Positions 16,020 through 37,980 are shown, counted from the first letter of the stretch. The stretch: 64,000 bases of DNA from Candidatus Uhrbacteria bacterium (GCA_016188425.1 JACPHX010000002.1:2373-66372), one strand, 5' to 3'. Numbers and translations: made by a program. Notes: generated from the letters alone by a model not told the origin.

Positions 16020-16059
16020 CGTTACGGATTACGGAAGTGTACGGAATTACGGAAATACG
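16020..16059. promoter_or_regulatory. Phased CCGTAA array abutting the trxA start codon, copy 1 of 2
   Basis: CGTTACGGATTACGGAAGTGTACGGAATTACGGAAATACG = four CCGTA(A) units spaced 8-10 nt. The same 40-mer (2 mismatches) lies upstream of rnc. Confidence 0.5.
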
Positions 16060-16119
16060 AAAAAGAACAACAACCAGGGTTTCACTCTATCATAGGGCTG
16101 GGAGGAGAGGGAGGTGGGG

Positions 16120-16240
16120 TGGGGAAAAAACGTGGGAAGGTTTCAAGGGTCGCAAGGATTTCAAGAGCATCAAGCGCAAACAAAAAAGGCACGGCCCGAA
16201 AGCGCATGCCCTTGCGACCCTTGCCGCCCTTGAAACCCTT
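16120..16240. other. Long nested inverted repeat downstream of infB
   Basis: GGTTTCAAGGGTCGCAAGG ... CCTTGCGACCCTTGCCGCCCTTGAAACC: outer and inner arms of ~11 and 14 bp around a ~50-nt loop. Confidence 0.45.
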
Positions 16241-16246
16241 GGGGCC

Positions 16247-18277
16247 TTACCGCTTCGAAATCCCCTGGATCACCAGCGCGCGCACCCGTCGTTCTTCCTT
16301 GTACGCCTCGATAAGATCCCCGACTTCAGGCTTTACCTTGCCGACATACTGCATCCCGATCTCTTGGCCGGTCTGGCCGGTCTTGATCTCCGAGCGGCCC
16401 AGGCGCAGCTCTTCGATAGTGCCTTCGCCGACGTACTCGCCCAGGTGGGAGAGGCGCAGCTTGAGGCCGGCCACGAGCTTGCCTTGCGTGACCTTGCCGC
16501 CGATGACCCAGCCGTTATCAGTACGCTTGAAGTTCATCAGGACTTCGAAGCGGCCGACTTCCTCGATGACCGTCTCGCTCGGAAGGAGTTTCTCCAGGTC
16601 GGTAATGAGGTCTTCGAAGAGTCGATAAATGACCGTATACGGACGAATCTCCACGTGCTTGTCCCGAGCGAGCGTCTTTGCCGTTTCCGTCGCGGACACG
16701 CCGAAGCCAAGGACGACCGCATGCGTTGCCTCCGCGTTTGCGATATCCGTGTCGTTGACGTTTCCCAATCCTTTTCCAACGACTTTGATGCCGACCTCCT
16801 GGTGTTTCACGGTATCAAGCATGCCCAGAATCGCCTCGAGGGATCCGAGCACGTCGGCACGAATGATGACGTTTACAAACTGTTTCGCCTCTGCTCCATC
16901 GGCCGCCACGGCCTTGATCGACGCGACGTTCTCCGTTCCCACGCGAGACTGCTCGGTCGTCTTCACGCGCTCAAGCGACTTCACATCCTGCGGCACTTCC
17001 ATGATGTCGCCGACGGCCGGCGCCGCTTTCCATCCGAGGATCTTTACCGGGAACGAAGGAGGGGCTTCCTTGACATCCTCCCCGCTCCAATTCTTCATCG
17101 CGCGCACGCGCCCGAACCATTGCCCGCGCGCCGCCAGCGCATCCCCCAAACGCAGCGTGCCGCTTTGGACAAGAACCGTCGCCACCGGACCCGCATTTTT
17201 ATCCACATGCGATTCGATAACGGTCCCGATCGCCAAACGCGTAGGATCGGCGATGATCTTTTCTTTCTCCACCTCGGCCACGAGCAACAGCGCATCCAGC
17301 AGCTTGTCGATGTTCGTCCCCTGCTTGGCTGAAATCGGGACCGCGATCGTCTGCCCGCCCCACTCCTCTGGAATGAAACCGGCGTCGGAAAGTTCGCGCT
17401 TTACCTTTTCAATGTCTGCCCCTGGCGCATCGATCTTGTTGATGGCCGCCACGAACGGAAGCTTGGCGGATTTGATGATGTTGATAACTTCCTTGGTCTG
17501 CGGCCGCACCCCGTCGTCGGCCGCGACGACCAAAATCGCGAGGTCGGCCACCTTGGCTCCACGCGAACGCATCACCGTAAATGCTTCGTGGCCAGGCGTG
17601 TCTATGAACGTCAAAAGCTGGTTGTTGCGCACGACCTGATACGCACCAATATGCTGGGTGATGCCACCGGCCTCCGTTTCCATGACATGCGTCGCACGGA
17701 TGGCATCGAGTAGTTTCGTCTTCCCGTGGTCGACGTGCCCCATCACAACGACGATCGGCGGACGCGGAAGGACACGTTCCTTTTCTTGGGAATCGAGGAT
17801 GGTCTTCAGGCGCATGCTCTCATCTTCCTTCACATCGACCGCCAACCCTTCGTTGACCTCTGCATGGACTTTGTATCCAAGATCCTCGCCGATGATGCTC
17901 GCCGTGTCGATGTCGATGCGGTCATTGATGGAAGCCAGAATGCCGTTGCGCATGAGCTCCTGCATGAGCCGAGGGACGGGAACGTCCAACCGAGACGCCA
18001 ACTCGCGCACCGTCATGACCGCGGGCAAGGTAATATCTTTGATGAGGACCGGGGCTGCGTCGCCCACCGGCCGGCCGGTCATCCCTTTCTGGAGTTCTAT
18101 CTTCTCGGCCAAGTAGTGCTTGCGGCGGTATTCGCCGAACGCACGTTCGATTTTCGGGATCATCCGGTCGTCCACTTTGAGCGCCCGCGCACCGATATTA
18201 AACCCAAGCGTGGGCAGCACGGTGCGAAGCTCTTCGGCAGAACTGTGGAGCCTACGGGCCAATTCGGTAAGATTCAT
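16247..18277 (-). CDS. infB: Translation initiation factor IF-2
   Basis: GHVDHGKT G-domain, DTPGH, full IF-2 domain order. 676 aa. Confidence 0.95.
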   Translation of the reverse strand: MNLTELARRLHSSAEELRTVLPTLGFNIGARALKVDDRMIPKIERAFGEYRRKHYLAEKIELQKGMTGRPVGDAAPVLIKDITLPAVMTVRELASRLDVPVPRLMQELMRNGILASINDRIDIDTASIIGEDLGYKVHAEVNEGLAVDVKEDESMRLKTILDSQEKERVLPRPPIVVVMGHVDHGKTKLLDAIRATHVMETEAGGITQHIGAYQVVRNNQLLTFIDTPGHEAFTVMRSRGAKVADLAILVVAADDGVRPQTKEVINIIKSAKLPFVAAINKIDAPGADIEKVKRELSDAGFIPEEWGGQTIAVPISAKQGTNIDKLLDALLLVAEVEKEKIIADPTRLAIGTVIESHVDKNAGPVATVLVQSGTLRLGDALAARGQWFGRVRAMKNWSGEDVKEAPPSFPVKILGWKAAPAVGDIMEVPQDVKSLERVKTTEQSRVGTENVASIKAVAADGAEAKQFVNVIIRADVLGSLEAILGMLDTVKHQEVGIKVVGKGLGNVNDTDIANAEATHAVVLGFGVSATETAKTLARDKHVEIRPYTVIYRLFEDLITDLEKLLPSETVIEEVGRFEVLMNFKRTDNGWVIGGKVTQGKLVAGLKLRLSHLGEYVGEGTIEELRLGRSEIKTGQTGQEIGMQYVGKVKPEVGDLIEAYKEERRVRALVIQGISKR

Positions 18278-18342
18278 GGGAAATTACAAAAAAGATTGAC
18301 ACAACCTTACCAAGCGCAGGCAAGGGAGTCAATGGAGCTTCG

Positions 18343-18732
18343 TTATGATATAGGCACGAACCTCATGATATCCCGCACCAACTCTGAAAGCGGATGGTCG
18401 GATTTGACCACATACCCAACCGCGCCGAGAGATTTTGCCTTCTCCCGATCCCCCGGCTGCTCGAGGGTCGAGACCAGAAGGACGGGAGTATCGCGCACGT
18501 CATCGTCTTTCTGCACCATGGAAAGGATGTCAAAACCAGTCAGATGAGGAAGGATGAGGTCGGCGACCACAAGCTGGGGACGCCAGCGGTGGATCTCTTT
18601 GAGCACCTGCAATCCGTCCGTCGTGATGCGCGTGTCGACCCCCTCGCGCTTGAGGCGGCGGGCGAGCGTGTCGGCGATGTAGGGATCGTCTTCGACCAAA
18701 AGAACCAATTTGTCGTTCTTGTGCTTTTCCAT
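18343..18732 (-). CDS. Stand-alone response-regulator receiver (CheY-like)
   Basis: LLVEDD...D(phospho-acceptor)...K layout. Start re-placed at MEKHKND. Confidence 0.8.
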   Translation of the reverse strand: MEKHKNDKLVLLVEDDPYIADTLARRLKREGVDTRITTDGLQVLKEIHRWRPQLVVADLILPHLTGFDILSMVQKDDDVRDTPVLLVSTLEQPGDREKAKSLGAVGYVVKSDHPLSELVRDIMRFVPIS

Positions 18733-18776
18733 ACGGCGTGTGACGCTATAATACCACGAGAAAATCACCGCCTTCT

Positions 18777-19550
18777 ATGATTGGATTCCTCCTCATCGAC
18801 AAACCCCTCGGTCTCACATCCAACGACGTGGTCGCGCGCGTCCGCCGGCTCACGGGCGTGCAACGGGTCGGCCACGCAGGCACGCTCGACCCGCTTGCAA
18901 CCGGCCTCCTCATCGTAGGCGTCGGGCGCGAAGCGACCCGAGAATTTCCCCGGTTGGTTGGCTTGCCCAAAACCTACCTCTCCACCTTCATTCTCGGCGC
19001 ACGTTCAACGACAGACGATGCCGAGGGAGAAAAAATAAGCGACCCAGTCCCGTCTCTCACGGAGGAAATCGTCGACCAAGGTCTCCTCCAACTCACAGGC
19101 GAAATCACCCAAACCCCTCCCCAATTCTCCGCGGTCAAAATCAAAGGCAAACCTGCCTACGCCCAGGCGCGCAAAGGGATAGAGGTGGTGATAAAGCCAC
19201 GGCAGGTGACAGTTTCTACTTTCAAAAGAATCGGATCGATCCGTCCACAAGCGGACGGGACGTTTGAGATCGACGTGAGCATCGATTGCTCGTCGGGGAC
19301 GTACATCCGTTCTCTGGCGAGAGACCTGGGGAGAATTCTGGGAGGTGGGGGGTATGTAAAAACGTTGCGACGGACATCTATAGGACCCTTTTCAGCCCAA
19401 GAAGCAATTCCATTACCAGCTGGAATATCCCATACCCAGCCAAGGGGCATGCCCCTTGGCCACATGTCTGATCCTGCCCTTCCAGCCATTCCAGCCCTCC
19501 CCCTGCTCCCCGTCCCAGGCCTTCTTGCCCTCCTCCCTCCCCCCTGCTAA
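18777..19550 (+). CDS. truB: tRNA pseudouridine(55) synthase. The C-terminal ~45 aa are encoded by repeat elements
   Basis: GHAGTLDPLATGLL catalytic Asp motif. The tail ...QPRGMPLGHMSDPALPAIPALPLLPVPGLLALLPPPC is translated from palindrome copy 3 plus the C-rich repeat. Confidence 0.8.
   Translation: MIGFLLIDKPLGLTSNDVVARVRRLTGVQRVGHAGTLDPLATGLLIVGVGREATREFPRLVGLPKTYLSTFILGARSTTDDAEGEKISDPVPSLTEEIVDQGLLQLTGEITQTPPQFSAVKIKGKPAYAQARKGIEVVIKPRQVTVSTFKRIGSIRPQADGTFEIDVSIDCSSGTYIRSLARDLGRILGGGGYVKTLRRTSIGPFSAQEAIPLPAGISHTQPRGMPLGHMSDPALPAIPALPLLPVPGLLALLPPPC
19438..19463. repeat. Palindrome family copy 3 (in the truB tail)
   Basis: AGCCAAGGGGCATGCCCCTTGGCCAC. Confidence 0.85.
19470..19550. repeat. 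C-rich element (copy A); the related copy B lies upstream of tRNA-Glu
   Basis: Shares TTCCAGCCCTCC and CTTCTTGCCCTCC blocks with 54446-54522. Confidence 0.5.
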
Positions 19551-19701
19551 AGTATGCCGGTAAATCGTAACGAATGCCGGCTGCTTCCGACTTGGTATGC
19601 GATCCGCCTTTCTCCAACTTTCCCCTTTCTCACCGATCCGCTATTTCCGGTTGTTCTTATAGTTGAAGGCCGTCCATCCGTCGGTTCAGCGGCAAGGCCG
19701 T

Positions 19702-21264
19702 ATGAACCTCACCACCATTGTCGTCCCCCTTCTCACCCTCGCTGCCGGTACAGGCGCGGGGTATGCCCTTCGTAAACAGATAGCTCTGCGCCATGCCACC
19801 GATGCCGCGGCCACGGCCGAGCGGCTCATCGAGGAAGCCAAGCAGAAAGCCCATGCCACAAGCATGAACGCCCAACAGGAAGCCAGTGAAATTCTCATCA
19901 AGGCAAAAGAACGCGCCTTCAGCCAGCTGGAAGAAGTAAAACGCGAGGAAGCCACGCTTAGGCGTGAAATCCAGGATGCACAAAAGCGCATGGAAAAGCG
20001 CGAGGAGACATTCGACCAAAAAATCCTCGATCTTGAGCAGAAAAAACAACAACTGGAGGATAAGCTCCAGTTCGTCGAGCAGACGAAAACCGAGCTCGCC
20101 CGCGCAAAGGACGAGCATGTAGAACGACTTGAGGCCGTCGCCCATCTCTCGCAGGAGGATGCCCTGGCGCAGCTCCACTCCCACGTAGAAGGACGACACA
20201 CCGAATCCCTCCTCTCCCGCATCCGCAAGCTTGAACAGACGGAGGAGGAAGAGATCGAGAAACAGTCGCGCCGCGTCCTTTCCATGGCCATCACCCGCTT
20301 CGCCTCCTCGGTCTGCGCCGAGCACACGACCTCGGTCGTTGAGCTCCCAAACGACGAGATGAAAGGGCGCATCATCGGGAAAGAGGGGCGCAACATCAAA
20401 GCCATCGAGCATCTGACTGGCACCGAAATCATCGTGGACGAGACACCGTCGGCGATCACGATCAGCGGGTTCTCCCCCATCCGCCGCCAGGTGGCCAAAC
20501 GCGCGCTGGAAGATCTCATCAAGGACGGCCGCATCCAACCCGCCCGCATCGAAGAGGCGGTAAATGAGGCCAAGCTGAACCTCGCCAAAGAAGTCCGCAA
20601 AGCAGGCGAAGAGGCCCTCTACCAATGCGGCATCCCCGTTTCCTCCGTGGATCCGAAACTGACCTCCATCCTCGGCCGCATGCGCTTCCGCACGAGCTAT
20701 GGCCAGAACGCGCTCATGCACTCCATCGAAGTCTCAACCCTCTCTGGCATGATCGCCGAGGAGCTGGGAGCCGATGTGTTCATCTGTAAAAAGGGAGGCC
20801 TCTTCCACGACATTGGCAAGGCCGTGGACCATGACATGCAAGGCGCGCATCCGGAAATCGGGTACAATATCATGCGGAAGTTCGGCTTCCCCGAGGAAAT
20901 CGCCTACCAGTCCATCGCCCATCACGAGGACAAGCCGAGGACTATCGAAGGGGCTATCGTCAAAGCGGCAGATGCCATCAGCGGCTCACGCCCGGGCGCC
21001 CGCCGGCAATCGGTGGAACAGTTCATCCAGCGCATGGAGCAGCTGGAGAAAACCGCCATGGGCTTCACGGGGGTGGAAAAGGCCTACGCCATCCAAGCCG
21101 GCCGCGAAGTGCGCGTCTTTGTAAAGCCCGAGGAAATCGATGACCTCACCGCCTACAAGCTGGCCCAGGACGTCGCCCAAAAGATCGAAGCGGAGCTGAC
21201 CTACCCTGGAGAAGTGAAAGTGACGGTCATCCGCGAAACGCGCGTGTGTGAATACGCCCGCTAG
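19702..21264 (+). CDS. rny: Ribonuclease Y
   Basis: N-terminal TM helix, coiled coil, KH domain (GKEGRNIKAIE), HD domain (HSIEV...HDIGK...HHED). Confidence 0.9.
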   Translation: MNLTTIVVPLLTLAAGTGAGYALRKQIALRHATDAAATAERLIEEAKQKAHATSMNAQQEASEILIKAKERAFSQLEEVKREEATLRREIQDAQKRMEKREETFDQKILDLEQKKQQLEDKLQFVEQTKTELARAKDEHVERLEAVAHLSQEDALAQLHSHVEGRHTESLLSRIRKLEQTEEEEIEKQSRRVLSMAITRFASSVCAEHTTSVVELPNDEMKGRIIGKEGRNIKAIEHLTGTEIIVDETPSAITISGFSPIRRQVAKRALEDLIKDGRIQPARIEEAVNEAKLNLAKEVRKAGEEALYQCGIPVSSVDPKLTSILGRMRFRTSYGQNALMHSIEVSTLSGMIAEELGADVFICKKGGLFHDIGKAVDHDMQGAHPEIGYNIMRKFGFPEEIAYQSIAHHEDKPRTIEGAIVKAADAISGSRPGARRQSVEQFIQRMEQLEKTAMGFTGVEKAYAIQAGREVRVFVKPEEIDDLTAYKLAQDVAQKIEAELTYPGEVKVTVIRETRVCEYAR

Positions 21265-21308
21265 CAACCTTGGCAAACCTTCTCAATTTGCTCTACACTA
21301 CTATCGAT

Positions 21309-21638
21309 ATGAACAAAGCAGAACTTGCCTCACGCCTGGCGGATCGCCTGGGCGTCTCTAAAAAACTCGGCGACGATTTCGTTGACGCGTTCGAAGACAT
21401 CGTCACCAAAACCCTTGTGGGCGGCGGCGAAGTCACCATCGCCGGCTTCGGCACCTTCTCGGCCCGCAAACGCGCCGGCCGCATCGGTGTCAACCCCCGC
21501 GACCCGTCCAAGCCCATCACGATCAACCCGGTCACGGTCGCGAAGTTCAAGGCAGGGAGCGCGCTTAAGAAGATTCTGAAACAGGGGGAGAGGACGGCGG
21601 CCAGCACACCACCCCAGACCATATCCACTCCATCGTAA
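21309..21638 (+). CDS. hup: HU-family DNA-binding protein with a C-terminal extension
   Basis: MNKAELASRLADRLGVSKK...GFGTFSARKRAGRIGVNPR HU/IHF fold. Start re-placed at the internal ATG. Confidence 0.85.
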   Translation: MNKAELASRLADRLGVSKKLGDDFVDAFEDIVTKTLVGGGEVTIAGFGTFSARKRAGRIGVNPRDPSKPITINPVTVAKFKAGSALKKILKQGERTAASTPPQTISTPS

Positions 21639-21642
21639 CAAC

Positions 21643-21675
21643 AAAAGAACCTCGGCATTGCCGAGGTTCTTTTTA
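21643..21675. terminator. Bidirectional terminator between hup and the lipoprotein gene
   Basis: AAAAGAACCTCGGCATTGCCGAGGTTCTTTTT. Confidence 0.6.
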
Positions 21676-21683
21676 ACGTACCA

Positions 21684-22214
21684 TCAGTTGGCTGACATCG
21701 TCCCCAACACCAGTTCCACCGCTTTCTCTTCCTCCAAGAAAACACTCACGATAATCAAGGATTCGTTTCGTTCAAAAACATAATGGGTCTTCTCAAGCCC
21801 CGCCGTCTGGGTGGTGCTGACAATCCTCTTGGCTGCGACGCCCCCGAGCTCGACATCCTCTATGGATTTCACTTCGTCCTTATTGTTCTTGATCGCCTCG
21901 ACAAAACCGTCCGTCGTAAGGCCCTTCGCCGCGTAAAAGTACGCGAGACTGATAGGCTTGTCCTCGCGCACTGTATCGCGCAGCGAGAGGAAGAAATCGA
22001 CATCCAGGCCAAGGTATTTGTACGCGCGTGTGTCCTTGTCTCGCAGATGGGTTTCCATGTACCCGGGGAAACGGAACGAGAACCCGTAATCGGCATCCTC
22101 GTATTTTTCCTTGAATTCGGGTGAGGCCACTGGCTTCACTTCCTCCTGTTTCCCCCACGTACATCCTGCTCCCAGGAGGAGCATCAGTCCGGCAACCGCA
22201 AATAGTTTTCGCAT
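21684..22214 (-). CDS. Hypothetical lipoprotein
   Basis: Signal peptide with lipobox LLGAGC. 176 aa, no recognised domain. Confidence 0.5.
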   Translation of the reverse strand: MRKLFAVAGLMLLLGAGCTWGKQEEVKPVASPEFKEKYEDADYGFSFRFPGYMETHLRDKDTRAYKYLGLDVDFFLSLRDTVREDKPISLAYFYAAKGLTTDGFVEAIKNNKDEVKSIEDVELGGVAAKRIVSTTQTAGLEKTHYVFERNESLIIVSVFLEEEKAVELVLGTMSAN

Positions 22215-22215
22215 A

Positions 22216-23776: not shown

Positions 23777-23811
23777 TTGAGACGTGGGACGTGAGGGGGG
23801 GACTTGGGCAC

Positions 23812-24916: not shown

Positions 24917-24974
24917 TATGTAACCTCCGTCTCATCTATGAGACACGGAACCCTAGCGCGAATAGTGCGAAGCG

Positions 24975-28549: not shown

Positions 28550-31500
28550 TTACGGCGCCACGAGCTCTGCCGGAGCTTCTTCCGGCGCCGGCGCTTCAGG
28601 GGCTGGGGTAGGCGGCGCCTCAATCACGGGAACCGCAACAGGCACGTCCTCGACGACAGGTACCACCTCGGCGGCATCGTCTGTCGTGGCTGCATCTGGA
28701 GCGGGTTCAATTGGGGTCGGTTCTTCTTGGGCAGGATCCTGCTCCGCGCTGCTACTCCCCGGCTCTTCCGAAGGGGGGACCTCTGCCTCATCTTCTGAAG
28801 ACAAAGGTTCTTCAAATCCAGATGTTTCCGCCTCTGCAGGAACCGATTCTGCCTCCGGCTCCGTCCTGTGGACAGGGTCAGCTTCCGCCGAAGGCGCCCT
28901 TCCGTTGGTGATCCCGTTGTTGCGGCTGATGTTTCCATCCTTCACTGCAAGGGCGATCCAGCTGAAATTCAATTCCTGCGGAGCATCGACGTCGATGCTG
29001 ATATTGAACCCAAGCTTGGATTTGTTCGTGACGATATAGCGCAGACCGGAGCCAAAGATACTATCCATGCCCATGTCGCCGGATTCAAGCGAGAGGGTGA
29101 TGTTCACCGAAGGATCGTGGAGATAGGGCTCGGCAAAATCTACACGCACCGAACGCTGGCCTTGCGCGACCGCCGCGAACCCTGCCGTGTCTATATTGGC
29201 GGCGGCTTTACCGAACAACAAATCGCCATACACAATCGTTTCGGGGCTTGTGGCAGAACCGACCTGATCGAGCTCAAGCCCGCCGCCTAAGAGCAAGGAA
29301 CCGGAGACGACGAGCGATCCTTCCGCTTCTGTCGCGGACGAAACCAATGCTGATGTTCCACCCCATGGCGCGCTCGCCGAGAGGAACAACACCACGTTTC
29401 CTTCTCCTTCCCCGTCATATTCACTCATCGCGCGGCCGATAATCGGGGATCCTACTCCCGCCTTCACCGCGACGCCGTTCTTCCCAGAGGAGGTCAGATA
29501 ATCTCCTACATGGATGATGCCGTTCGCGGCAGAAGCGCGGACGGACACGCGCCCCGTGATCGCGACGCGAACTCCGTCAAATGTACCGTTACTAACCTCC
29601 ACGCCGGACGTTTTTGTAACGACGCCCACCATGAGGTCATCGGCGGCGAGTTTTGAAGGCTCGACTTTGGGGCCTTCTCCCGTCAAAGAGACGATCGTTC
29701 CCTCGGGGATTTCGGTGTTATCCGACGGGAACATCTGTGTCATGGCGCTCCCGGTGGAAAAATCCGCCGTCACTTTCTTGAGTTCCCAAGATTCTTTCAT
29801 GCCGTCGATGCCCAAATCCGTCTGGGCGGGGGTCAGGTCTTCCGCATCGGCGGGAGCCCCCTCTGGCGTCGCGGCATCGGCAACGGCCGCCTCGGGGGTC
29901 TGTTCATTGTCATCCTGCCACGCGCGGAAAAAATCGACGTCCATGGAGCCGCTCGCGCCGCCCGAGCGAGACTGCCAGTGGAACATCGGCGCCAAGCTTA
30001 TGGTCGGGATATTCGTCGAGCTGCCACCGTCGCACTCGGTGAAAGCCACCCCGTCGCTCACATCCGGATCGATAAAGAAATGGACATCGGAGGTGGAGCG
30101 GACTTCAACCATCATCAATGCGTACTGGGAAGTGGAAACGGTTTGTCCCGCGCACGCGACCGTCGTCTGCGTCCCGCCGGAAATGGTCACGCCGGCCCAT
30201 GTCGTCGACCCTTCCGTAGAAAAGCCGATGAAGTTCGTCGGAGCCGCCGTTAATCCGTCCGTCGAATCCGCCATGCCGGCATAGGCATAGAAATTCGCCC
30301 CCGTATTGTTCGGACGAAGCTTCATGAGCATGACGGGCAGGTTGTCTGCGTCCAAAACGGAACGCGCGTTGTTGAGCGCATCGTCCATCATCAACAGACA
30401 TCCGTTGCCTGAACCCGTGTTTGCTATGTTCACAATCCCGTTGATCGCATCATTGGTTGAAGTAAAGGTGCAGTTGGCATTCTCGTACGCCCCCCATCCG
30501 CCGCCGTCCCCGAGACCTGTTCCGGAAGCGCCGGTCGTATCTACCGTGATCGTTGTGCGCTTTTTTGAAAATTCCTCCTCGATTTTGGAGTTCCGATCGA
30601 TAAATGCGCCGGCGTTCATGGCCAACCCGAAATTCGTGTTGATATCCCGCGCCTGCAGCAGGTTATTCGTGCCATCGCTCCAAGCAAGCAGCCCGGCATC
30701 GACGAATTGCCAGGTGGGCGTCGAGCTGCGGAAACGAATACCGTCGCCGAACTGCGCCTGGCCGATCACTTCCAGTTCATCCGCCACGCGCAGGTCGCCT
30801 GCCCCACCGGACGCATAGCTGAACGCGGAATCGGATCCGACAATCACAGCAGCCGTGTTGTAGAACAGTCCGTTGGCGCCCACGGACCAGGCTGAACCCG
30901 TGATATCGCTTGTAAAGGCGACCGTTCCGGACCCATCCTTGAACGTAATCGTGCGGTCCGCCGTCGGCTCGATGAACGCGAACGTCGTCTCGTTGGCGTC
31001 TGCGACGGCGCCTTCAAACGTAAGCGGCGTCGTACCGCCGCCGATCGTGGCCGTAATCGTAAAAATATCGGACGCGGCATTCCCGATCGCGGTATTTCCG
31101 TTCACCGTAAGATCGCCTGCCGTGAGGACATCGCCCGTTGTTCCGGAGACGGTAAAGTTGGACGTATCGACCGCCATGCCGCCATCCAAGTTTACAAGCG
31201 CGGCGGTAGTCGCTCCGCGCCCGGTCACGGAGGCGAGCGTGGATGTATTGTTCACCGTGACGGTGTCTGTCGCGGAGGTCACGACGTTGATATCCGTTCC
31301 ATCGACGAATGTCATCGTGTCGCCATTGCTGATGGTCTGCGGAGTCGTGCCATCGGTGATGGTGAATGCGACGCCTCCGGAGGTGAGACAGGTGGCGCAG
31401 CCGATGTCGCCTGCCGCGCTTAAAGTAACCGGGGACGTTGCGGACACCGCCACGGTACCAGAGGCATTGGGGAACGTGATGGTTCGATCGGCCGTGGGAT

Positions 31501-31843
31501 CCGCGACCGCAAACGTGGTTTCAAACGCATCTACCGTCGCCCCCTCAAAGACAAGCGGTGAGCCGCCAAGCACGGTCGCATTGAACGTGACGGTATCTGC
31601 TGCATCGGAACCGATGTAGGCATTTCCAATAACTTCGATCTCATCTGCCACGCGTAAATCACCAATGCCACCGGAGGCGAAGCTGAACGCAACATCGGTG
31701 CCGACGATCACCGCCTTGTCATCTTCAAAGACGCCCATCGCGCCATCTTCCCAAAGATTCGTTCCGATGTCGGAAATCCGCAAAGGCGAACGTCGATTCA
31801 AAGGCATCAACCGTTCCCCCTTCAAAGACAAGTGGGGATGCAC
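28550..31843 (-). CDS. Giant beta-strand-repeat surface protein, distal fragment (modules plus an acidic Pro/Glu-rich tail)
   Basis: Repeated modules SPLVFEGATxDAFETTFAxxDPTADRTITFxxASGTVA. The N-terminal 119 nt overlap the upstream ORF in another frame. Confidence 0.55.
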   Translation of the reverse strand: MHPHLSLKGERLMPLNRRSPLRISDIGTNLWEDGAMGVFEDDKAVIVGTDVAFSFASGGIGDLRVADEIEVIGNAYIGSDAADTVTFNATVLGGSPLVFEGATVDAFETTFAVADPTADRTITFPNASGTVAVSATSPVTLSAAGDIGCATCLTSGGVAFTITDGTTPQTISNGDTMTFVDGTDINVVTSATDTVTVNNTSTLASVTGRGATTAALVNLDGGMAVDTSNFTVSGTTGDVLTAGDLTVNGNTAIGNAASDIFTITATIGGGTTPLTFEGAVADANETTFAFIEPTADRTITFKDGSGTVAFTSDITGSAWSVGANGLFYNTAAVIVGSDSAFSYASGGAGDLRVADELEVIGQAQFGDGIRFRSSTPTWQFVDAGLLAWSDGTNNLLQARDINTNFGLAMNAGAFIDRNSKIEEEFSKKRTTITVDTTGASGTGLGDGGGWGAYENANCTFTSTNDAINGIVNIANTGSGNGCLLMMDDALNNARSVLDADNLPVMLMKLRPNNTGANFYAYAGMADSTDGLTAAPTNFIGFSTEGSTTWAGVTISGGTQTTVACAGQTVSTSQYALMMVEVRSTSDVHFFIDPDVSDGVAFTECDGGSSTNIPTISLAPMFHWQSRSGGASGSMDVDFFRAWQDDNEQTPEAAVADAATPEGAPADAEDLTPAQTDLGIDGMKESWELKKVTADFSTGSAMTQMFPSDNTEIPEGTIVSLTGEGPKVEPSKLAADDLMVGVVTKTSGVEVSNGTFDGVRVAITGRVSVRASAANGIIHVGDYLTSSGKNGVAVKAGVGSPIIGRAMSEYDGEGEGNVVLFLSASAPWGGTSALVSSATEAEGSLVVSGSLLLGGGLELDQVGSATSPETIVYGDLLFGKAAANIDTAGFAAVAQGQRSVRVDFAEPYLHDPSVNITLSLESGDMGMDSIFGSGLRYIVTNKSKLGFNISIDVDAPQELNFSWIALAVKDGNISRNNGITNGRAPSAEADPVHRTEPEAESVPAEAETSGFEEPLSSEDEAEVPPSEEPGSSSAEQDPAQEEPTPIEPAPDAATTDDAAEVVPVVEDVPVAVPVIEAPPTPAPEAPAPEEAPAELVAP
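31636..31775. repeat. 140-nt identical block of a ~600-nt tandem gene-internal repeat; partner at 32236-32375
   Basis: Exact 140/140 identity at a 600-nt offset, flanked by ~90%-identical sequence. Confidence 0.85.
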
Positions 31844-33713
31844 CTAAATAGACCGCTCCGGTGAAGTCGTAGTTCCCAGTTCCCGTGTCTCCCGTGTTAA
31901 AGAGGAACACATCGTTGACGTTGACCGAGTCCCCGCTGACCGTGGTATTCGTTCCGTTGGAAAGATTAGTGTCATCCGATATATCCACCGATCCATTCGC
32001 AATCATCGTTCCGGTCACGGAACCGGCATCTCCTGTCGTCACAACCGTGCCGGTGACGTCCGGGACTGTAATGACGCGATCTGCCGTCGGATCGGTGATG
32101 GCGAGTGTTGTCTCGAACGCATTCGCCGTGGCTCCTTCAAAGACAAACGGGGAGCCGCCCAGGATGGTTGCATTCAATGTGACGGTATCCGCCGCATCGG
32201 ATCCGATGTACGCATTGCCAATGACCTCGATCTCATCTGCCACGCGTAAATCACCAATGCCACCGGAGGCGAAGCTGAACGCAACATCGGTGCCGACGAT
32301 CACCGCCTTGTCATCTTCAAAGACGCCCATCGCGCCATCTTCCCAAAGATTCGTTCCGATGTCGGAAGTCGGATCCGCGAACGCGAACGTCGATTCGAAA
32401 GCGTCAACGGTTCCTCCTTCAAAGACGAGCGGGGACGCGCCTTGCAGCACCGCTCCCGTGAAGTCATAATCCCCCGTTCCCGTATCACCTGTGTTCATCA
32501 AGAACACGTCGTTCACATCAATCGAATCCCCGTTGACGGTGGTATTCGTCCCGTTGGAAAGATTCGTGTCATTCGAGATATCCACCGACCCGTTGGCGAT
32601 CATCGCCCCTGTGACGGAACCCGTGTCACCTGTGGTCACGACGGTGCCGGTGACGTCTGGGAAGGTAATCGTCTGATCCGCAGTAGGATCCACGAGAGCC
32701 AGAGTCAACTCAAACGTATCCGCCGTGGCGCCTTCCAAAACCCAAGGAGCTGCGCCGAAAAAAACAGCGCCGGAAAAATCATAGTTCCCCGTCGCGACAT
32801 CGCCTGTGTTGAAAAGATAACTGTCGGCGATATCAAGCGTGACCGTATCGGTAATGCTGTCCCCTGTAACAGTGATGTTTGCTGATCCAGCAGAGAGGGA
32901 AAGCGTGTCCGTCGCCGAATCAGCGACTGGGGCCGTTCCAGACGTGGTCGCGATCGTCTCAAAAAGATTCTGCGAACCAGCAATATCGGAAAGGAAGGCG
33001 ACGGTTCCGCTCGCATCCTGAAAGGTGATCGTCCGATCCGCGGTCGGATCCGTCATGGCGAACGTCGTCTCGAACGCATCTGCCGTCGCACCCTCAAAGA
33101 CGAGCGGCGACCCGGTCTGCAAAGACGCGCCGGAAAAATCAAAATCCCCCGTGGCGGTATCGCCCGCACTGGCAAGGAAATCCGCCGCTCCCATCCCTTC
33201 CAGGGTCCCGGCGTTTATCGCGTAGCCAGACGAACGGATCCTCTGGCGTGGAGAGAGGTTTTCAAACACAGCCAAGGCACAGGAACCCGCTACCTGATCC
33301 CCGACCTCCACGTTGAGATAGGCCTCGTCAGTGGATTGGAAATTGAAATCCAGAAGATCCCCGCCTGCGCCCACATCGCCGATACCCGCGGTAAAGACGC
33401 CCTCTGTCACTTCGATGGTCATGGTCGAGGGCGCGCCAGCCGGCCACAGCTGCGCATCCCCCCCTCCGACCGTTTCATCATCAAAAAACGAAAATTTGAA
33501 ACAGTAATCCGTTCCGCTGGAGCCACCCAATAAATTCCCAGAACCATCCAATAGTCTTCCTTGATAGGTTACTTCTTCCGGAACGCCAACCGCCGCGCGC
33601 GCAGCGAATGCTGGAATGAAATACGACAAAAACACGACAAGCAAGGCCGTGGTAGTGATTTTAAAAATTCCCTTTTGTCTTCGGTGCATGAGTGCCTCCA
33701 CAAAATGGAACAC
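31725..33713 (-). CDS. Giant beta-strand-repeat surface protein, proximal fragment with signal peptide
   Basis: Signal peptide (KITTTALLVVFLSYFIPAFAARAA), same module family. Ends in an out-of-frame tail (FRHRNESLGRWRDGRL) where a paralogous repeat reads PTSDIGTNLWEDG. Confidence 0.55.
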   Translation of the reverse strand: MFHFVEALMHRRQKGIFKITTTALLVVFLSYFIPAFAARAAVGVPEEVTYQGRLLDGSGNLLGGSSGTDYCFKFSFFDDETVGGGDAQLWPAGAPSTMTIEVTEGVFTAGIGDVGAGGDLLDFNFQSTDEAYLNVEVGDQVAGSCALAVFENLSPRQRIRSSGYAINAGTLEGMGAADFLASAGDTATGDFDFSGASLQTGSPLVFEGATADAFETTFAMTDPTADRTITFQDASGTVAFLSDIAGSQNLFETIATTSGTAPVADSATDTLSLSAGSANITVTGDSITDTVTLDIADSYLFNTGDVATGNYDFSGAVFFGAAPWVLEGATADTFELTLALVDPTADQTITFPDVTGTVVTTGDTGSVTGAMIANGSVDISNDTNLSNGTNTTVNGDSIDVNDVFLMNTGDTGTGDYDFTGAVLQGASPLVFEGGTVDAFESTFAFADPTSDIGTNLWEDGAMGVFEDDKAVIVGTDVAFSFASGGIGDLRVADEIEVIGNAYIGSDAADTVTLNATILGGSPFVFEGATANAFETTLAITDPTADRVITVPDVTGTVVTTGDAGSVTGTMIANGSVDISDDTNLSNGTNTTVSGDSVNVNDVFLFNTGDTGTGNYDFTGAVYLGASPLVFEGGTVDAFESTFAFADFRHRNESLGRWRDGRL

Positions 33714-33810
33714 GGCAGAACAAGCGTCTGCTTCCGTTACAGAGAAAGTATATCACACAATTTTTTTCTCTCCCACAAAATGAAAAATCGATCACAAGAT
33801 CGATTTTTCA

Positions 33811-33888
33811 TGGTGCGGGCAGAGGGAGTCGAACCCCCAACCCTCAGCTTCGAAGGCTGATGCTCTATCCAGTTGAGCTATGCCCGCC
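33811..33888 (-). tRNA. tRNA-Arg (anticodon TCG), CCA encoded
   Basis: Reverse complement GGCGGGC-ATA-GCTC-AACTGGATA-GAGC-A-TCAGC-CTTCGAA-GCTGA-GGGTT-GGGGG-TTCGACT-CCCTC-TGCCCGC-A-CCA. Confidence 0.8.
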
Positions 33889-33889
33889 T

Positions 33890-34135
33890 ATGGCTGGAGG
33901 CCCTAGAATCGCGATCTGCTGGCTTACGTCTCCGCGCCAGGCCTCAACGTACCATTGAGGTACGCCTCGGCCTGGTGCTCGCCGTGCGCCAGCATCTCAT
34001 CGATTCTAGAGCCTCCAGCCCGATGTGTTCGTGTGAATAATGGCCTAGATCCATAACGGCCGGAGCGCCTAGAATCGCGATCTGTGGCTTGCGCCGACAT
34101 TTCAATGATTCTAGGCATCCCGGCCTTTTGTTTGT
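33890..34135. repeat. Two inverted-repeat-bounded elements sharing a CCTAGAATCGCGATCTG core, between tRNA-Arg and tRNA-Lys
   Basis: GGCTGGAGGCCCTAGAATCG...CGATTCTAGAGCCTCCAGCC (33891-34019) and GGCCGGAGCGCCTAGAATC...GATTCTAGGCATCCCGGCC (34057-34135). Confidence 0.5.
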
Positions 34136-34197
34136 GGCCGAACTTTAGCAACTTTCTTGACGATGCGCAAGAATATTGGCATTCTTTTCGCACCTAG

Positions 34198-34273
34198 GCA
34201 CTGGTAGCTCAGCTGGTAGAGCAGCGGACTCTTAATCCGTTGGTCGCGGGTTCGAATCCCGCCCGGTGCACCA
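34198..34273 (+). tRNA. tRNA-Lys (anticodon CTT), CCA encoded
   Basis: GCACTGG-TA-GCTC-AGCTGGTA-GAGC-A-GCGGA-CTCTTAA-TCCGT-TGGTC-GCGGG-TTCGAAT-CCCGC-CCGGTGC-A-CCA. Confidence 0.85.
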
Positions 34274-34610
34274 GCATAAAGCCATCAACTTGAGTAGCTG
34301 CAGAATCGGCAGAGGTCTGCCGGCCCCTGTGGATAATCTAGTTGGTGGCTTTTTGTTTGCAGATTTGATGGGTTACTTGCTTTCTCTCTATAAAAAGAGG
34401 GAGGATGGGACGGTTCGAATCCTCATTGCCTCAAACTGTCATTGTGTATGCCACTCGAACCTAAACCGAATTCACGCGTTTCAATCACAAGCCTTAAATC
34501 GAGCCATATCAAACGCATCCGCGCAGCCATTGAGAAGGAATCTGGCCAGCTGCTCGATCTTACCGATACGGAACTGGAGGTGTATGCGGTGGAGATTTTG
34601 AGAGCGATGG

Positions 34611-34928
34611 ATGTTGTATATTTATGAAACAATGACTCCCCATTCTATGAATGTAGATCATGTTATTCTACTTATTTCGTTAGGAATACCTGCTTGTTTG
34701 ATTGCATTCTGTTGGTGCGTTTTACTTTTTACGATGCGTAGGACTACTGGTGAATTGAGACTATTTCTTTCCGCGGAAAATCTGGTTAAAGGCATGGTTG
34801 TTATATTTGTCTTACTAACTACAACTGCCCTGAGTATTCTGGGCATACTCTCGGGCGAGTTAGCTGGTACTATTATTGGTGGCATTATTGGATATACTCT
34901 TGGAACTAAGTTTTCTGTGGAAAAATAG
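34611..34928 (+). CDS. Island small membrane protein (2-3 TM)
   Basis: AT-rich ORF with hydrophobic helices (ILLISLGIPACLIAFCWCVLLF; VVIFVLLTTTALSILGIL). Confidence 0.4.
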   Translation: MLYIYETMTPHSMNVDHVILLISLGIPACLIAFCWCVLLFTMRRTTGELRLFLSAENLVKGMVVIFVLLTTTALSILGILSGELAGTIIGGIIGYTLGTKFSVEK

Positions 34929-34932
34929 TAGT

Positions 34933-35151
34933 ATGAAAATTTTGCTCAGTATGTTGGTGGCGGTCGGATTCGTTGTGGGAATAATCATTGGCGGTTCTCT
35001 AAAAGGTAAGGAGAACTCGGATTGTTATAAGTTTTCTCTGCTCCAAGCCGTGTCCCAGGTTGATCAAGGTGGTTATATTGCTGATGTGCAGGCTCGACAA
35101 AAGGCACAAGATGAAGCGTTGGTTCCGTTACTCACGACTTGCCTCCAATGA
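34933..35151 (+). CDS. Island small single-TM protein
   Basis: MKILLSMLVAVGFVVGIIIGGSL... 72 aa; the ATG was checked. Confidence 0.35.
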   Translation: MKILLSMLVAVGFVVGIIIGGSLKGKENSDCYKFSLLQAVSQVDQGGYIADVQARQKAQDEALVPLLTTCLQ

Positions 35152-35226
35152 TAAGATACATGTTTCAATGCCACTCCTTTCGTGTTGATTGATGTTGCAA
35201 TTTATCGTACGCTGGAAAAAAGACTT

Positions 35227-35415
35227 ATGGATCTCAAACAACAGTTTTTGAAGGTGTATTCAACGCTTCCTTTAGGCATACGTAAAGAGATCGTGATTGT
35301 TTTAGATGCGCCGGTGGGACCGGTCAGTTGGGAGGCGGCATACCTCGAAGTTGAAAACCGTACCGCTGTTTCCGAAGTGATTCTAACGAAGCTTCACGAG
35401 CTTCAAATCATATGA
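35227..35415 (+). CDS. Island small protein A (62 aa from the ATG; alternative GTG start at 35182)
   Basis: First gene of a coupled triplet; its stop overlaps the next start (ATGA). Confidence 0.4.
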   Translation: MDLKQQFLKVYSTLPLGIRKEIVIVLDAPVGPVSWEAAYLEVENRTAVSEVILTKLHELQII

Positions 35416-35645
35416 CCGACAATCAAAAAATCGATACACGGTACTCGGATGAAGAAATCCGTAAGTTGGTCGTGGCGCGACTCTCCGTGCTTTCTTCAGA
35501 TATGCAGATTTCGATTGGCTCCTCTGGTACCTTTACGCGTGACGAGCTCATTGGGCACGTGAACGCAAACGATGATCTTGGACGGAAGATCGAAGAGATC
35601 GAACTCGAGTGGTTGCGCTCGTGGAAAGATAAGGCACACGTATGA
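35412..35645 (+). CDS. Island small protein B (77 aa)
   Basis: ATGA overlaps on both sides. No recognised family. Confidence 0.45.
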   Translation: MTDNQKIDTRYSDEEIRKLVVARLSVLSSDMQISIGSSGTFTRDELIGHVNANDDLGRKIEEIELEWLRSWKDKAHV

Positions 35646-36283
35646 TGCTTGTGACGCGGCCAGACTACGATCCGGCGACACGGTATCTTTCCGCATGGTC
35701 TTCCATCTTGATGGAGGAGGCAGAGCGTCGAAAATTACGAGTCATTGATCTTCCGGGCGAGAAAGCAAGAAAGGCCGACCTTGTGGGTCGGATCAACAAA
35801 TTAAAGCCTGATTTACTCGTCTTGAACGGGCATGGGAGCGACGAATGTATTGCTGGACAAGATGCGGAGGTTCTCGTGAAGGCCAAGGACAACGCCGTGC
35901 TCCTCAAAGGAAAGGTGACGTACGCGGTCTCCTGCAATTCCGCCGCTGTTTTGGGAGAGGAAGTCGGCACCTACTCTGACACGGCGTATATAGGTTTTGA
36001 GAATGAATTCGCGATAATCCAATCGCAGGACCATGCGAGCCGTCCCCTGGATGATCCGTTCGCGAAGCCCTTCATGGAATTTTCGAATCAGGTGGTGACG
36101 GGTCTTCTTAAAGGACACAAAACAGCGGAGTGTGTGAGTCGTGCGAAGGAGACGGGTAAGGCGAAGATCAACGCGCTTCTCACCAGCGATTCCGATCCTG
36201 ACAAGCAGGCGATCGCACGGTATCTTTGGTGGGATATTCAAGGACTTGTGTGTAAAGGTGACCAGAATAAGAAGATATTATAG
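35642..36283 (+). CDS. Island protein C: alpha/beta protein with an HG...C putative catalytic dyad (caspase / clan-CD-like or DJ-1/PfpI-like cysteine hydrolase)
   Basis: Hydrophobic strand + NGHG (PDLLVLNGHGSDE), then ~35 aa later hydrophobic strand + Cys (KVTYAVSCNSAAV). 213 aa. Confidence 0.4.
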   Translation: MMLVTRPDYDPATRYLSAWSSILMEEAERRKLRVIDLPGEKARKADLVGRINKLKPDLLVLNGHGSDECIAGQDAEVLVKAKDNAVLLKGKVTYAVSCNSAAVLGEEVGTYSDTAYIGFENEFAIIQSQDHASRPLDDPFAKPFMEFSNQVVTGLLKGHKTAECVSRAKETGKAKINALLTSDSDPDKQAIARYLWWDIQGLVCKGDQNKKIL

Positions 36284-36332
36284 AAGAAAATTCGCAACCA
36301 GTGTTTCGACTTCATCCACGTTAGTGCACCAG

Positions 36333-36362
36333 AAAAGACACTCTATTTTTGGAGTGTCTTTT
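36333..36362. terminator. Bidirectional terminator at the island edge / xth 3' end
   Basis: AAAAGACACTC-TATTTTT-GGAGTGTCTTTT. Confidence 0.65.
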
Positions 36363-37139
36363 CTATGTTCCTGCTATCTCAATCCCCACCGGACAATGGT
36401 CCGACCCCATCACGTCATTGAGAATAAACGCCTTCTTGATCCGTTTCATGATCGCCTTATCCGCCCAAAAATAATCGATTCTCCACCCAATATTCCTCGT
36501 CCGAGCGTACGTCTTCATATCCCACCAGGAATAGGCCTCGATCGTCTTTGGGTGCAGCGAACGGAAGGTGTCGACATACCCGTGTTTCTCAAGCTTATCC
36601 AACCACTTGCGTTCCATGGGAAGAAACCCGGATGTCTTCTCGTTCTCTTTCGGATGCGACAAATCGACAGGACGATGCGCGGTGTTTACATCCCCGCAGA
36701 TGATGACGGGTTTGTGTTTGCGATACCCCTCGATGAAGCCGAGGAACCGATCGTAAAAATGCATCTTAAAATCCAACCGCTCGCGATTGCGCGCGCCGTT
36801 TGGGAAATACACATTGAAAAGATAAAAATCCTTGTGCTCTGTCAGAATGATGCGCCCCTCCCCATCGAGCGTCAGGTCGCCGAAGTTCGACATCTCCATG
36901 AGCGGCTTCTCTTTCGAGAAGGTCGCGGTTCCACTGTACCCCTTCTTCAACGCCGAATTCCAAATCCCCATGTAGCCGTCGGGATGGATGATGTCGTGGG
37001 AGAGTTGCTCGACATGGGCTTTCGTTTCTTGAAGGCACAGGATGTCGGGGCTCGCTTCTTGAAGCCAGGGGAGGAAACCTTTTTTCACGGCGGCGCGGAC
37101 GCCGTTCACGTTCCAAGAAAGCAGGGTCATGTTTTTCAT
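36363..37139 (-). CDS. xth: Exodeoxyribonuclease III (AP endonuclease)
   Basis: LLSWNVNG...DILCLQETK...GDVNTAHRPVD...SDHCPV EEP-family motifs. Start re-placed at MKNMTLLSW; the ORF-track N-extension is spurious. Confidence 0.85.
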   Translation of the reverse strand: MKNMTLLSWNVNGVRAAVKKGFLPWLQEASPDILCLQETKAHVEQLSHDIIHPDGYMGIWNSALKKGYSGTATFSKEKPLMEMSNFGDLTLDGEGRIILTEHKDFYLFNVYFPNGARNRERLDFKMHFYDRFLGFIEGYRKHKPVIICGDVNTAHRPVDLSHPKENEKTSGFLPMERKWLDKLEKHGYVDTFRSLHPKTIEAYSWWDMKTYARTRNIGWRIDYFWADKAIMKRIKKAFILNDVMGSDHCPVGIEIAGT

Positions 37140-37242
37140 AGGTGAGGTTTCAGACGTCGCAGAGGTTTCAGACGTTTCAGAGGCACATGCCTTCAAACGC
37201 CTCTGTCGCCTCTGGGGCGTCTGCGACCTCTGCTGCCACAAC

Positions 37243-37932
37243 CTACCACCCTTTCTCCGCCAACGCCTTCGCGGCCGCATCCACCTGCGCTTCATGCTTG
37301 GACAGTCCCGTTCCTTTGGCGACCTGCTCTTTCTCCAAATAGACTCCGACGATGAAGGTCTTGGAGTGGTCCGGGCCTTCCTCCGAGAGGACTTTGTACG
37401 AGGGCGTGATACCCACATGCTCCTGGGCGGCTTCTTGGAAGCGGCTTTTGGGATCGATGTAGAGGCGGTGTTCGAGGATGCGTGGAAGATGCACCATGAC
37501 GGTGCGAAGGATGAATTGCTTGGACGGTTCCCATCCTTGGTCGAGATAAATGGCGCCGATAAGCGCCTCGAAGGCGTTGGCGAGGATGTAGCGGCGCGCC
37601 TTCGTGTCCTTGTCGCGGGACTCTCCCCGGGAAAGGAGCAGATCCCCCTCGATATCGAGACTGTGGCAAATTTCGGCGAGCATGTCGGCGTTTACCAGCG
37701 ACGCGCGCCAATTGGTGAGTTCCCCTTCCGGGTTCTCGTAGTTCTGATACAGGTATTCTGTCACGACGAGTTCAAGAACGGCATCGCCCAAAAATTCTAA
37801 ACGCTCGTTGTGGCCAAGCTCAAAAGACGGGTGTTCGTTCAAATACGATCGGTGAACAAGGGCTTGGCGTAAGGTATCTTTATTCTGAAACGTCACGCCG
37901 AGAACTTGTTCGATGTGGGAGAGATCGCTCAT
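37243..37932 (-). CDS. rnc: Ribonuclease III
   Basis: ERLEFLGDAVLELVV signature plus a C-terminal dsRBD. Confidence 0.9.
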   Translation of the reverse strand: MSDLSHIEQVLGVTFQNKDTLRQALVHRSYLNEHPSFELGHNERLEFLGDAVLELVVTEYLYQNYENPEGELTNWRASLVNADMLAEICHSLDIEGDLLLSRGESRDKDTKARRYILANAFEALIGAIYLDQGWEPSKQFILRTVMVHLPRILEHRLYIDPKSRFQEAAQEHVGITPSYKVLSEEGPDHSKTFIVGVYLEKEQVAKGTGLSKHEAQVDAAAKALAEKGW

Positions 37933-37939
37933 AAGACAT

Positions 37940-37980
37940 CGTTACGGATTACGGAAGTATACGGAATTACGGAAGTACGG
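37940..37980. promoter_or_regulatory. Phased CCGTAA array abutting the rnc start codon, copy 2
   Basis: CGTTACGGATTACGGAAGTATACGGAATTACGGAAGTACGG, 38/40 identical to 16020-16059. Confidence 0.5.

Follow-up and report, generated by a model that had tools for sequence, protein, structure and literature searches.

The stretch of DNA analysed here, 64,000 nucleotides (nt) from a Candidatus Uhrbacteria bacterium (GCA_016188425.1, JACPHX010000002.1:2373-66372; hereafter the window, G+C content 55%), carries a short array of TCCGTAA-like units immediately upstream of two genes, the thioredoxin gene trxA and the RNase III gene rnc. Our analysis showed that these arrays belong to a lineage-specific cassette family with a bias in both orientation and position, and that many other array families of this genome behave in the same way. 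The reading we favor, with a probability of about 0.62, is that the arrays are members of a single dispersed family of short-tandem-repeat cassettes copied between gene junctions of this lineage. A first-pass annotation of the window had proposed the site of a multimeric DNA-binding protein or an RNA element, and had suggested either a regulon or a translation-initiation element common to the thiol-redox operon trxA-trxB and rnc. By its RNase III and thioredoxin, the source lineage belongs to Candidatus Uhrbacteria within the candidate phyla radiation (CPR, or Patescibacteria), and the same sequence was recovered in three Logan assemblies. These assemblies extended the window by about 2.9 kb on the left and about 7.5 kb on the right. 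The analysis covered about 72 kb of the genome.

The similarity of the two arrays is real and not a product of chance. The 40-mer first noticed has an exact match at 16020-16059 and one with 2 mismatches at 37940-37979, and a mismatch scan thereby confirmed the reported 38 identities in 40 positions; no further match with 3 or fewer mismatches was found in the window, nor any in 100 shuffles. Direct counting over a slightly longer segment (16018-16059 versus 37938-37979) gave 40 identities in 42 positions. The likeness fades by 16064 and 37984, with 43 of 47 positions identical over the full cassette, and a repeat finder likewise extended the pair to 47 nt. As the first-pass annotation stated, trxA-trxB and rnc lie downstream of the two copies; all of these genes are on the minus strand (Table 1). 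The 40-mer ends 9 nt before the ATG of trxA and 7 nt before that of rnc, where the first-pass annotation had given 8 to 10 nt. The description of the element as an entire 5' leader fits rnc only: the nusB reading frame enters the array and ends there (the TAA at 37967-37969 is the nusB stop), and the 34-nt nusB-rnc spacer therefore consists wholly of the element, whereas the 236-nt spacer between infB and trxA also holds other arrays.

The units within the cassettes follow an irregular but shared register. CCGTA units start at -42, -34, -24, and -17 in the trxA copy, with a degenerate TCGTA unit further upstream, and at -48, -40, -32, -22, and -15 in the rnc copy, giving spacings of 8/10/7 nt and 8/8/10/7 nt, respectively. 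The earlier estimate was about 10/10/8 nt and helical phasing; since the measured spacing is irregular and runs from 7 to 10 nt, no such phasing exists. In each cassette, five TYCGTA(A) units follow one another at fixed intervals of 8/8/10/7 nt, and the cassette ends in CCGTAACGAT. TRF described the cassettes with a period of 8 (4.6-4.9 copies) and also with a period of 18 (2 copies), with 81-82% matches and 14-15% indels; the units measure 7-10 nt. Because the irregular register and the terminal CCGTAACGAT are both shared, the copies appear to descend from one cassette and not from independent slippage. On the sense strand, the leaders are poor in G, with 6 G in 54 nt from the trxA start through the cassette (16011-16064) and 6 or 7 G in 52-54 nt for the two genes, and rich in pyrimidines (68% for trxA and 65% for rnc). 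TAA occurs at -39, -21, and -14 of the trxA leader, and the TAA codons of the cassette occupy two of the three reading frames.

Beyond the left edge of the window, at a distance of about 2 kb, a third, diverged copy (L219, 5484-5565) occupies the spacer that follows a transglutaminase-like gene. It reads TTTCGTAA TTTCGTAT TTTCGTATA TTTCGTAG TTTCCG-CTCGCCCCGCACCCGCCTAGTGGCGCGGGG-TAACGAT-CCCCCT-ATG, in which CTCGCCCCGCACCCGCCTAGTGGCGCGGGG is a 30-nt GC hairpin; no relative of this hairpin was found in the window. Without the hairpin, the terminal unit becomes TTTCCGTAACGAT, as it is at trxA and rnc, and a later insertion has therefore split it. The fourth copy is a one-unit relic directly before a VanW-like gene. 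The relic with its start codon, TTTCGTAACGTTGTCCT-ATG, matches the end of the rnc copy, TCCGTAACGATGTCTT-ATG, in 13 of 16 positions, and a promoter-like TTGACC-N17-TATCCT lies about 50 nt upstream of it. Within about 66 kb, at least three full copies and one relic are thus present, all of them in junctions between co-directional genes and all terminating in (C)CGTAACG(A/T)T. Each lies in the sense orientation 5-7 nt before an ATG, a placement that is not random. When the window and 46 other loci were scanned for GTAACG no more than about 30 nt ahead of a start codon, it was seen at three genes of this genome and as one isolated match in another (L149).

Comparison with orthologous junctions revealed how young these copies may be. 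The cassette is absent from all 80 rnc loci and all 9 trxA loci of related Uhrbacteria that we examined. The infB-trxA-trxB order is kept in five related lineages, where the infB-trxA spacer measures 2, 14, or 40 nt and is array-free. The nusB-rnc order is mostly kept in the 80 metagenomic rnc loci, usually with a spacer of a few nt; the longer spacers carry other arrays (CCACCTAA, TACCTTATC, ATTCCAA, ATTCGTAG, or a ACTCAACGACT hairpin). In the closest RNase III relatives (88% and 83% amino acid identity), the 19-21 nt before the ATG held by the contigs are unrelated in sequence. The related unit TTCGTAG forms arrays at variable positions in three other Uhrbacteria genomes (L135, L144, and L154), including one array upstream of a TTGACA-N17-TAGAGT site; L144 and L154 are rnc loci. 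Because the orthologous junctions of relatives are short and cassette-free, the cassettes are best interpreted as recent insertions into tight intra-operon junctions and not as remnants of a conserved regulatory region.

The cassette shares its habit with many other arrays, of which this genome carries numerous unrelated families of 7-10-nt units, and its relatives rather fewer; they have widened gene spacers that were at first tiny. TRF disclosed arrays of period 7-10 throughout the window, in at least six unit families besides the cassette, several of which recur at distant window sites. They fill co-directional spacers (infB-trxA, rnc-xth, the tRNA-Glu leader, and the stretches preceding proS and the gene at 42603-43286) and enter coding sequence (the nusB tail at 38002-38043, the truB tail at 19472-19544, and tsaD at 50719-50750 and 50916-51001). 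A survey of the clade, comprising 47 non-redundant Uhrbacteria loci with 748 kb and 763 gene calls, returned 90 arrays. Intergenic DNA makes up 15% of this sequence and contains 49 of the arrays, which are thus enriched there 7.4-fold. Among the 16 arrays located 30 nt or less upstream of a start, the sense strand had less G than C in 12 and more G than C in 3, and arrays just past stop codons tend to be G-rich. Paired G-poor and G-rich arrays are complementary and fold to long hairpins of -36 to -107 kcal/mol; a comparison of sense and antisense stability, in which G-U pairing would report selection at the RNA level, gave no consistent asymmetry for these hairpins. In three loci (L142, L184, and L192), the same or a closely related unit recurs at separate sites.

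The unit itself is common beyond this clade. TACGGA-type arrays with periods of 7-9 form at least 117 stretches in GTDB genomes from many phyla; the carriers listed include Ignavibacteria, Kapaibacteria, Bacteroidales, Chloroflexota, Vibrio, and Patescibacteria, and the source genome is not among the listed matches. The listed arrays often adjoin others (CTCACACC, TTACTGA, and GTGACGA) and sometimes tRNA genes, and many lie at contig ends. Judged against crude gene calls, 15 were sense and 10 antisense upstream of starts, so no universal orientation rule emerged. Viral contigs gave 17 generic matches that were uninformative.

These observations bear directly on the proposal that the element is an operator array, at which a DNA-binding regulator would co-control thiol-redox and RNA-processing genes. 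We consider this very unlikely, even though a 6-7-nt motif directly repeated four or five times, a near-identical sequence at two unrelated genes, and two further related copies before other genes are what such an operator might look like. The repeats, irregular and 7-10 nt apart, are far from the 10-11 bp of a helical turn, and they are not conserved at orthologous junctions even at 83-88% protein identity. In relatives these junctions measure 2-40 nt and lie inside operons, which therefore leaves no ancestral regulatory region. Many other array families, moreover, occupy the genome in the same manner as the cassette, and the genes downstream of its copies (trxA, rnc, the VanW-like gene, and an unnamed gene) share no evident theme. 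A multimeric binding site with a common regulon is thus contradicted by spacing, by conservation, and by the many unrelated junction arrays, and the cassette is unlikely to be a marker of a trxA/rnc regulon.

In the structural sense, the suggested RNA element fared no better. An Rfam scan of the window at gathering thresholds returned 4 tRNAs and nothing at the cassette, and the cassette leaders are predicted to be unstructured, with minimum free energies of -1.5 to -2.9 kcal/mol and z-scores of 0.05 to 1.2, no better than shuffles; a structured cis-regulatory RNA was rejected on this basis. A search of the window for a complementary, TTACGGA-sense partner array, with which the cassette might pair as a hairpin or as antisense, turned up nothing but lone TCCGTAA heptamers in the opposite strand. 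Two other candidates were discarded because the genes lie on the other strand and the orientation is inconsistent across phyla: GGA motifs of the CsrA type in the opposite strand, and a complementarity with the 530 loop of 16S rRNA. A miniature inverted-repeat transposable element or other small mobile element was rejected as well: neither inverted termini nor target-site duplications were visible at the copies, and their flanks share nothing beyond the cassette.

To place the cassette in its setting, the start codons of the clade have to be considered. Shine-Dalgarno (SD)-like GGAG, GAGG, or AGGA at -18 to -4 precedes 6 of the 49 confidently called window genes (12%) and 19% of 546 genes in related loci (L123-L202). 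The first-pass annotation had pointed to a missing SD sequence, and indeed no GGAGG-like sequence intervenes between the element and the ATG of trxA or rnc; with SD motifs scarce genome-wide, however, this is no special property of these two genes. Within Parcubacteria, the anti-SD motif was found in just 48% of 16S rRNAs, its loss falling mainly in one subgroup (PMC9297842). The base at -1 is T in 73% of window genes and in 69% of genes in the related loci, and this genome also favors C at positions -2 to -4 ('CCCT ATG'). Over the related loci and the window together, the last base of TANNNT peaks at -10 to -7 from the ATG, with 41/26/16/21 genes versus about 11 elsewhere. This peak suggests that Uhrbacteria have many promoters that yield very short leaders or none, and near-leaderless promoters would accordingly be common in the clade. 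The window offers as examples the TG-TACAAT before nusB (38516-38508) and the TACACT before the gene at 56789.

One alternative is a translation-initiation module, in which the pyrimidine-rich, unstructured (UCCGUAA)n with CGUAACGAU would give ribosomes a landing pad that needs no SD pairing, or would offer a platform to an RNA-binding protein such as S1, and would have been copied before genes that had lost tight coupling to the upstream gene. Of the proposals in the first-pass annotation, this weaker one, a common translation-initiation element, is what survives. The sense orientation and 5-7-nt distance of all four copies would suit this role, as would the predicted lack of structure in the leader RNA and the scarcity of SD-like sequences, and start-proximal arrays of other families are likewise G-poor on the sense strand. 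The window also encodes an S1-domain protein (43966-45114), and a syntenic gene near gyrA in a related locus (L205) matches PF00575. Relatives, however, translate the same genes with spacers of 2-40 nt and no such element, and GTAACG near starts is almost confined to this genome. The TTCGTAG arrays described above, at variable distances from starts and in one case upstream of a promoter-like site, and the TACGGA arrays of other phyla, which are unoriented relative to starts, speak against the module as well. Taken together, we regard it as rather unlikely.

Less likely still is a portable promoter for leaderless mRNA, in which TAACGAT would supply a -10 element (AACGAT, with A at -11 and T at -7), transcription would start at or near the ATG, and trxA and rnc would gain their own promoters inside former operons. 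AACGAT lies at a distance compatible with leaderless transcription, where the TANNNT of the clade peaks and near-leaderless promoters seem common; its last base falls at -8, -6, and -7 in the three full copies, TAACGT in the relic is a true TANNNT that ends at -7, and about 70% of start codons are preceded by T at -1. A scan with the sigma-70 consensus, in contrast, revealed no site in the trxA spacer or the rnc cassette; its sole match there was upstream of nusB, where a promoter-like TAGCCA-16-TG-TACAAT occupies 38535-38508. The best alignment in the cassette, TTCCGT-N17-AACGAT, agrees with 5 of 12 consensus positions, whereas the recognizable promoters of the window are canonical (TTGACA-N17-TATGAT and TG-TACAAT). 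In the L219 copy, the 30-nt hairpin parts the array from TAACGAT, and the array therefore cannot supply a -35 element there.

The two ideas can be merged into a broader one, that in SD-poor, near-leaderless Uhrbacteria the start-adjacent G-poor cassettes are functional 'start modules' (landing pad or leaderless promoter) that spread by copy-and-paste to the 5' ends of genes and rewire former operon junctions such as infB|trxA and nusB|rnc; the recurrent gain of arrays and hairpins before rnc in particular would then reflect RNase III autoregulation. We view this extended scheme as speculative and rather improbable, while some start-site function of the cassette, in translation or as a leaderless promoter, is possible in light of its position.

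As a dispersed repeat cassette, the element could have arisen in two steps. Arrays would grow by replication slippage, and whole cassettes would be copied between junctions by ectopic recombination or gene conversion. A sense cassette would give the downstream gene a G-poor, unstructured leader with TAA stops that ends 5-7 nt before the ATG, and at rnc it even provides the stop of nusB. Near a start codon, the cassette is probably kept only in the orientation that leaves the initiation region G-poor and single-stranded, and it may help to hold this region single-stranded. Such a spacer may be tolerated beside start codons because SD pairing is rarely used and many genes have very short leaders.

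Several observations weigh against the view of a dispersed cassette. The fixed distance of 5-7 nt from the ATG in all four copies is not explained by a neutral repeat alone, and an insertion-site preference or selection for a start-site function is therefore needed. The exact composite had no match in JGI metagenome contigs. Three sequencing runs agree on the array sequence in all parts that they cover, so that ongoing slippage is not visible, and the copy count and the target genes rest on about 66-72 kb of genome. As a separate observation, independent short-read assemblies of the three runs (L002-L005) break in or at the TCCGTAA arrays, with contig starts at 16034, 37968, 37981, and 37981. 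Because the assemblies break there although the two copies share no 31-mer, the breaks hint that the population contains length variants or that more near-identical copies exist.

Both the breaks and the constancy of the array also concern a phase-variable contingency locus, in which the downstream genes would be switched as the number of repeats changes. A tandem array beside a start codon invites the idea, and the breaks could reflect length heterogeneity, yet the units are imperfect and of unequal length and therefore a poor substrate for slippage, the array did not vary among the three runs, and it lies outside the open reading frame (ORF) of the downstream gene. We find this explanation scarcely credible, and a dispersed cassette still accounts best for the data.

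Coordinates of the cassettes and of the surrounding genes are collected in Table 1.

Table 1. Cassette copies, neighboring genes, and other arrays in the window (positions counted from its first nucleotide).
Feature	Coordinates	Strand	Remarks
Cassette copy 1	16018..16064	-	upstream of trxA; minus strand TTTTTCGTAT TTCCGTAA TTCCGTACAC TTCCGTAA TCCGTAACGAT, then TATCCCT-ATG
Cassette copy 2	37938..37984	-	nusB/rnc junction; minus strand TTATCCGTAC TTCCGTAA TTCCGTATAC TTCCGTAA TCCGTAACGAT, then GTCTT-ATG
One-unit relic TTTCGTAACGTTGTCCT	52930..52946	+	directly before ATG of VanW-like gene
trxA (thioredoxin, 105 aa)	15693-16010	-	downstream of copy 1; Pfam PF00085
trxB	14758-15690	-	follows trxA; PF07992
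infB	16247..18277	-	upstream of trxA; spacer 236 nt
rnc (RNase III, 229 aa)	37243..37932	-	downstream of copy 2
nusB	37967..38494	-	upstream of rnc; final codons and stop encoded by cassette copy 2
VanW-like gene	52947..53750	+	PF04294; downstream of relic
Other infB-trxA spacer arrays	16094..16241	-	C-rich sense array (16094-16124) and long CAAGGG-type 9-mer hairpin
Two 9-nt arrays, rnc-xth spacer	37144..37233	-	G-rich after rnc stop; C-rich ending 4 nt before xth ATG; partly complementary

Around the two cassettes, further arrays have lengthened spacers and proteins. The CAAGGG-type hairpin between infB and trxA has arms at 16139-16170 and 16206-16237 and a predicted energy of -58 kcal/mol. 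The rnc-xth spacer measures 103 nt here versus 19 nt (L203) and 2 nt (L204) in the closest RNase III relatives. The C-terminal tail of NusB is encoded by a 9-nt array translated as AQG/AQE/AQR repeats, and the proteins of relatives end shortly past ...KEVDKE. The truB tail is a 9-nt array as well; both arrays are translated as C-terminal extensions, and relatives are without such tails. In tsaD (50275-51378, minus strand), heptamer and octamer arrays keep the frame and apparently add low-complexity loops to an essential enzyme. The 9-mer family that encodes the nusB tail, GGCGCAAGG, also forms inverted arrays in a hairpin of about 150 nt (42455-42602, -107 kcal/mol) at the 5' end of a gene called at 41780-42556.

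The nusB-rnc junction is, in its own right, a recurrent hot spot for unrelated arrays and array-built hairpins (e.g., L142, L159, L174, L176, L144, and L205). Of 42 lineages, 11 have an array within 60 nt before rnc, and among other genes the corresponding share is 38 of 704 (odds ratio 6.2, p = 3e-5). About 4 of these 11 are Lys/Glu-codon repeats of the nusB tail. In some lineages, hairpins abut the rnc ATG, and these could be autoregulatory substrates of RNase III.

Other repeats of the window were recorded alongside. Downstream of a canonical promoter at 54409-54437, TTGACA-N17-TATCAT, a 56-nt CCCAGCCCT-type array reaches to within 4 nt of the 5' end of tRNA-Glu (54523), so in the region 54409-54522 an array occupies the leader of a non-coding gene too; a repeated sequence at 53767-53808 carries a similar promoter, TTGACA-N17-TATGAT. 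The GC-rich palindrome ATGTGGCCAAGGGGCATGCCCCTTGGCCACAT is present in three copies (5316-5365, 9938-9968, and 19439-19465), one just after ndk and two within ORFs called leuS and truB, and behaves like a dispersed hairpin of the repetitive extragenic palindromic (REP) type. Direct repeats of 300 nt, about 595 nt apart and 79-84% identical, extend over 30894-33164 in and beside a giant ORF (28550-31807) and probably reflect a repetitive surface protein.

These results have several implications. As the regulon lead fails, follow-up on the supposed co-regulation of trxA and rnc is spared. CPR genomes are thought to be compact and streamlined, yet this Uhrbacteria lineage has inflated junctions from 2-40 nt to 100-240 nt. 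The arrays obey rules of strand and position, with G-poor arrays abutting starts and G-rich partners trailing stops, and they also lengthen the C-terminal tails of proteins. If these placement rules reflect function, the arrays would inform on how translation or transcription starts in bacteria that are largely without SD pairing. The arrays also break short-read assemblies, which bears on the quality of metagenome-assembled genomes.

In the literature we searched, no description of short tandem arrays of this kind in CPR/Patescibacteria was found. The cassette was compared with known systems from other bacteria. It resembles the phase-variable simple sequence repeats of Haemophilus and Neisseria as a set of short tandem repeats near gene starts; in contrast to these, it is imperfect and irregular, shows no length variation in three samples, and precedes housekeeping genes. 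With REP sequences and bacterial interspersed mosaic elements it has in common a dispersed, intergenic location in operons, and other array pairs of this genome form long intergenic hairpins; the TCCGTAA cassette, however, is non-palindromic and, by prediction, unstructured, and no partner complementary to it lies nearby. Putative mobile promoters, reportedly described by Matus-Garcia, Nijveen and van Passel in 2012 as identical upstream sequences before non-homologous genes, are similar in that a near-identical sequence lies directly 5' of unrelated genes in one genome. They differ in that the cassette has no recognizable promoter, is built of tandem repeats, and shows no link to a mobile element. 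Initiation that is independent of SD pairing takes place on unstructured leaders, as in Bacteroidota and in S1-dependent initiation. The likeness here is an SD-poor genome with a G-poor leader, predicted to be single-stranded, beside the ATG, whereas relatives are without the cassette and there is no sign that it is required.

The closest parallel is provided by the short tandemly repeated repetitive (STRR) sequences of filamentous, heterocyst-forming cyanobacteria. STRRs are 7-bp repeats between co-transcribed genes, of unknown function, for which roles in transcript stability or translational coupling were proposed (PMC2670836). Both systems consist of tandem units of about 7 bp, with several families per genome and each family dispersed, both typically lie in non-coding DNA between co-transcribed genes, and in both some pairs form hairpins. 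The cassette differs in its CPR host and in units that are not the canonical heptamers (CCCCAGT, etc.) but 7-10 nt long, set in an irregular fixed register that behaves as a composite of about 45 nt. Its copies stand at a fixed 5-7 nt from starts in one orientation, and arrays of this genome also enter the 3' ends and loops of genes (nusB, truB, and tsaD). Because the host, Candidatus Uhrbacteria, and the units are different, the cassette is best regarded as an analogue of the STRRs and not as a member, and is best filed among CPR-specific dispersed short tandem repeats that prefer the position just upstream of starts.

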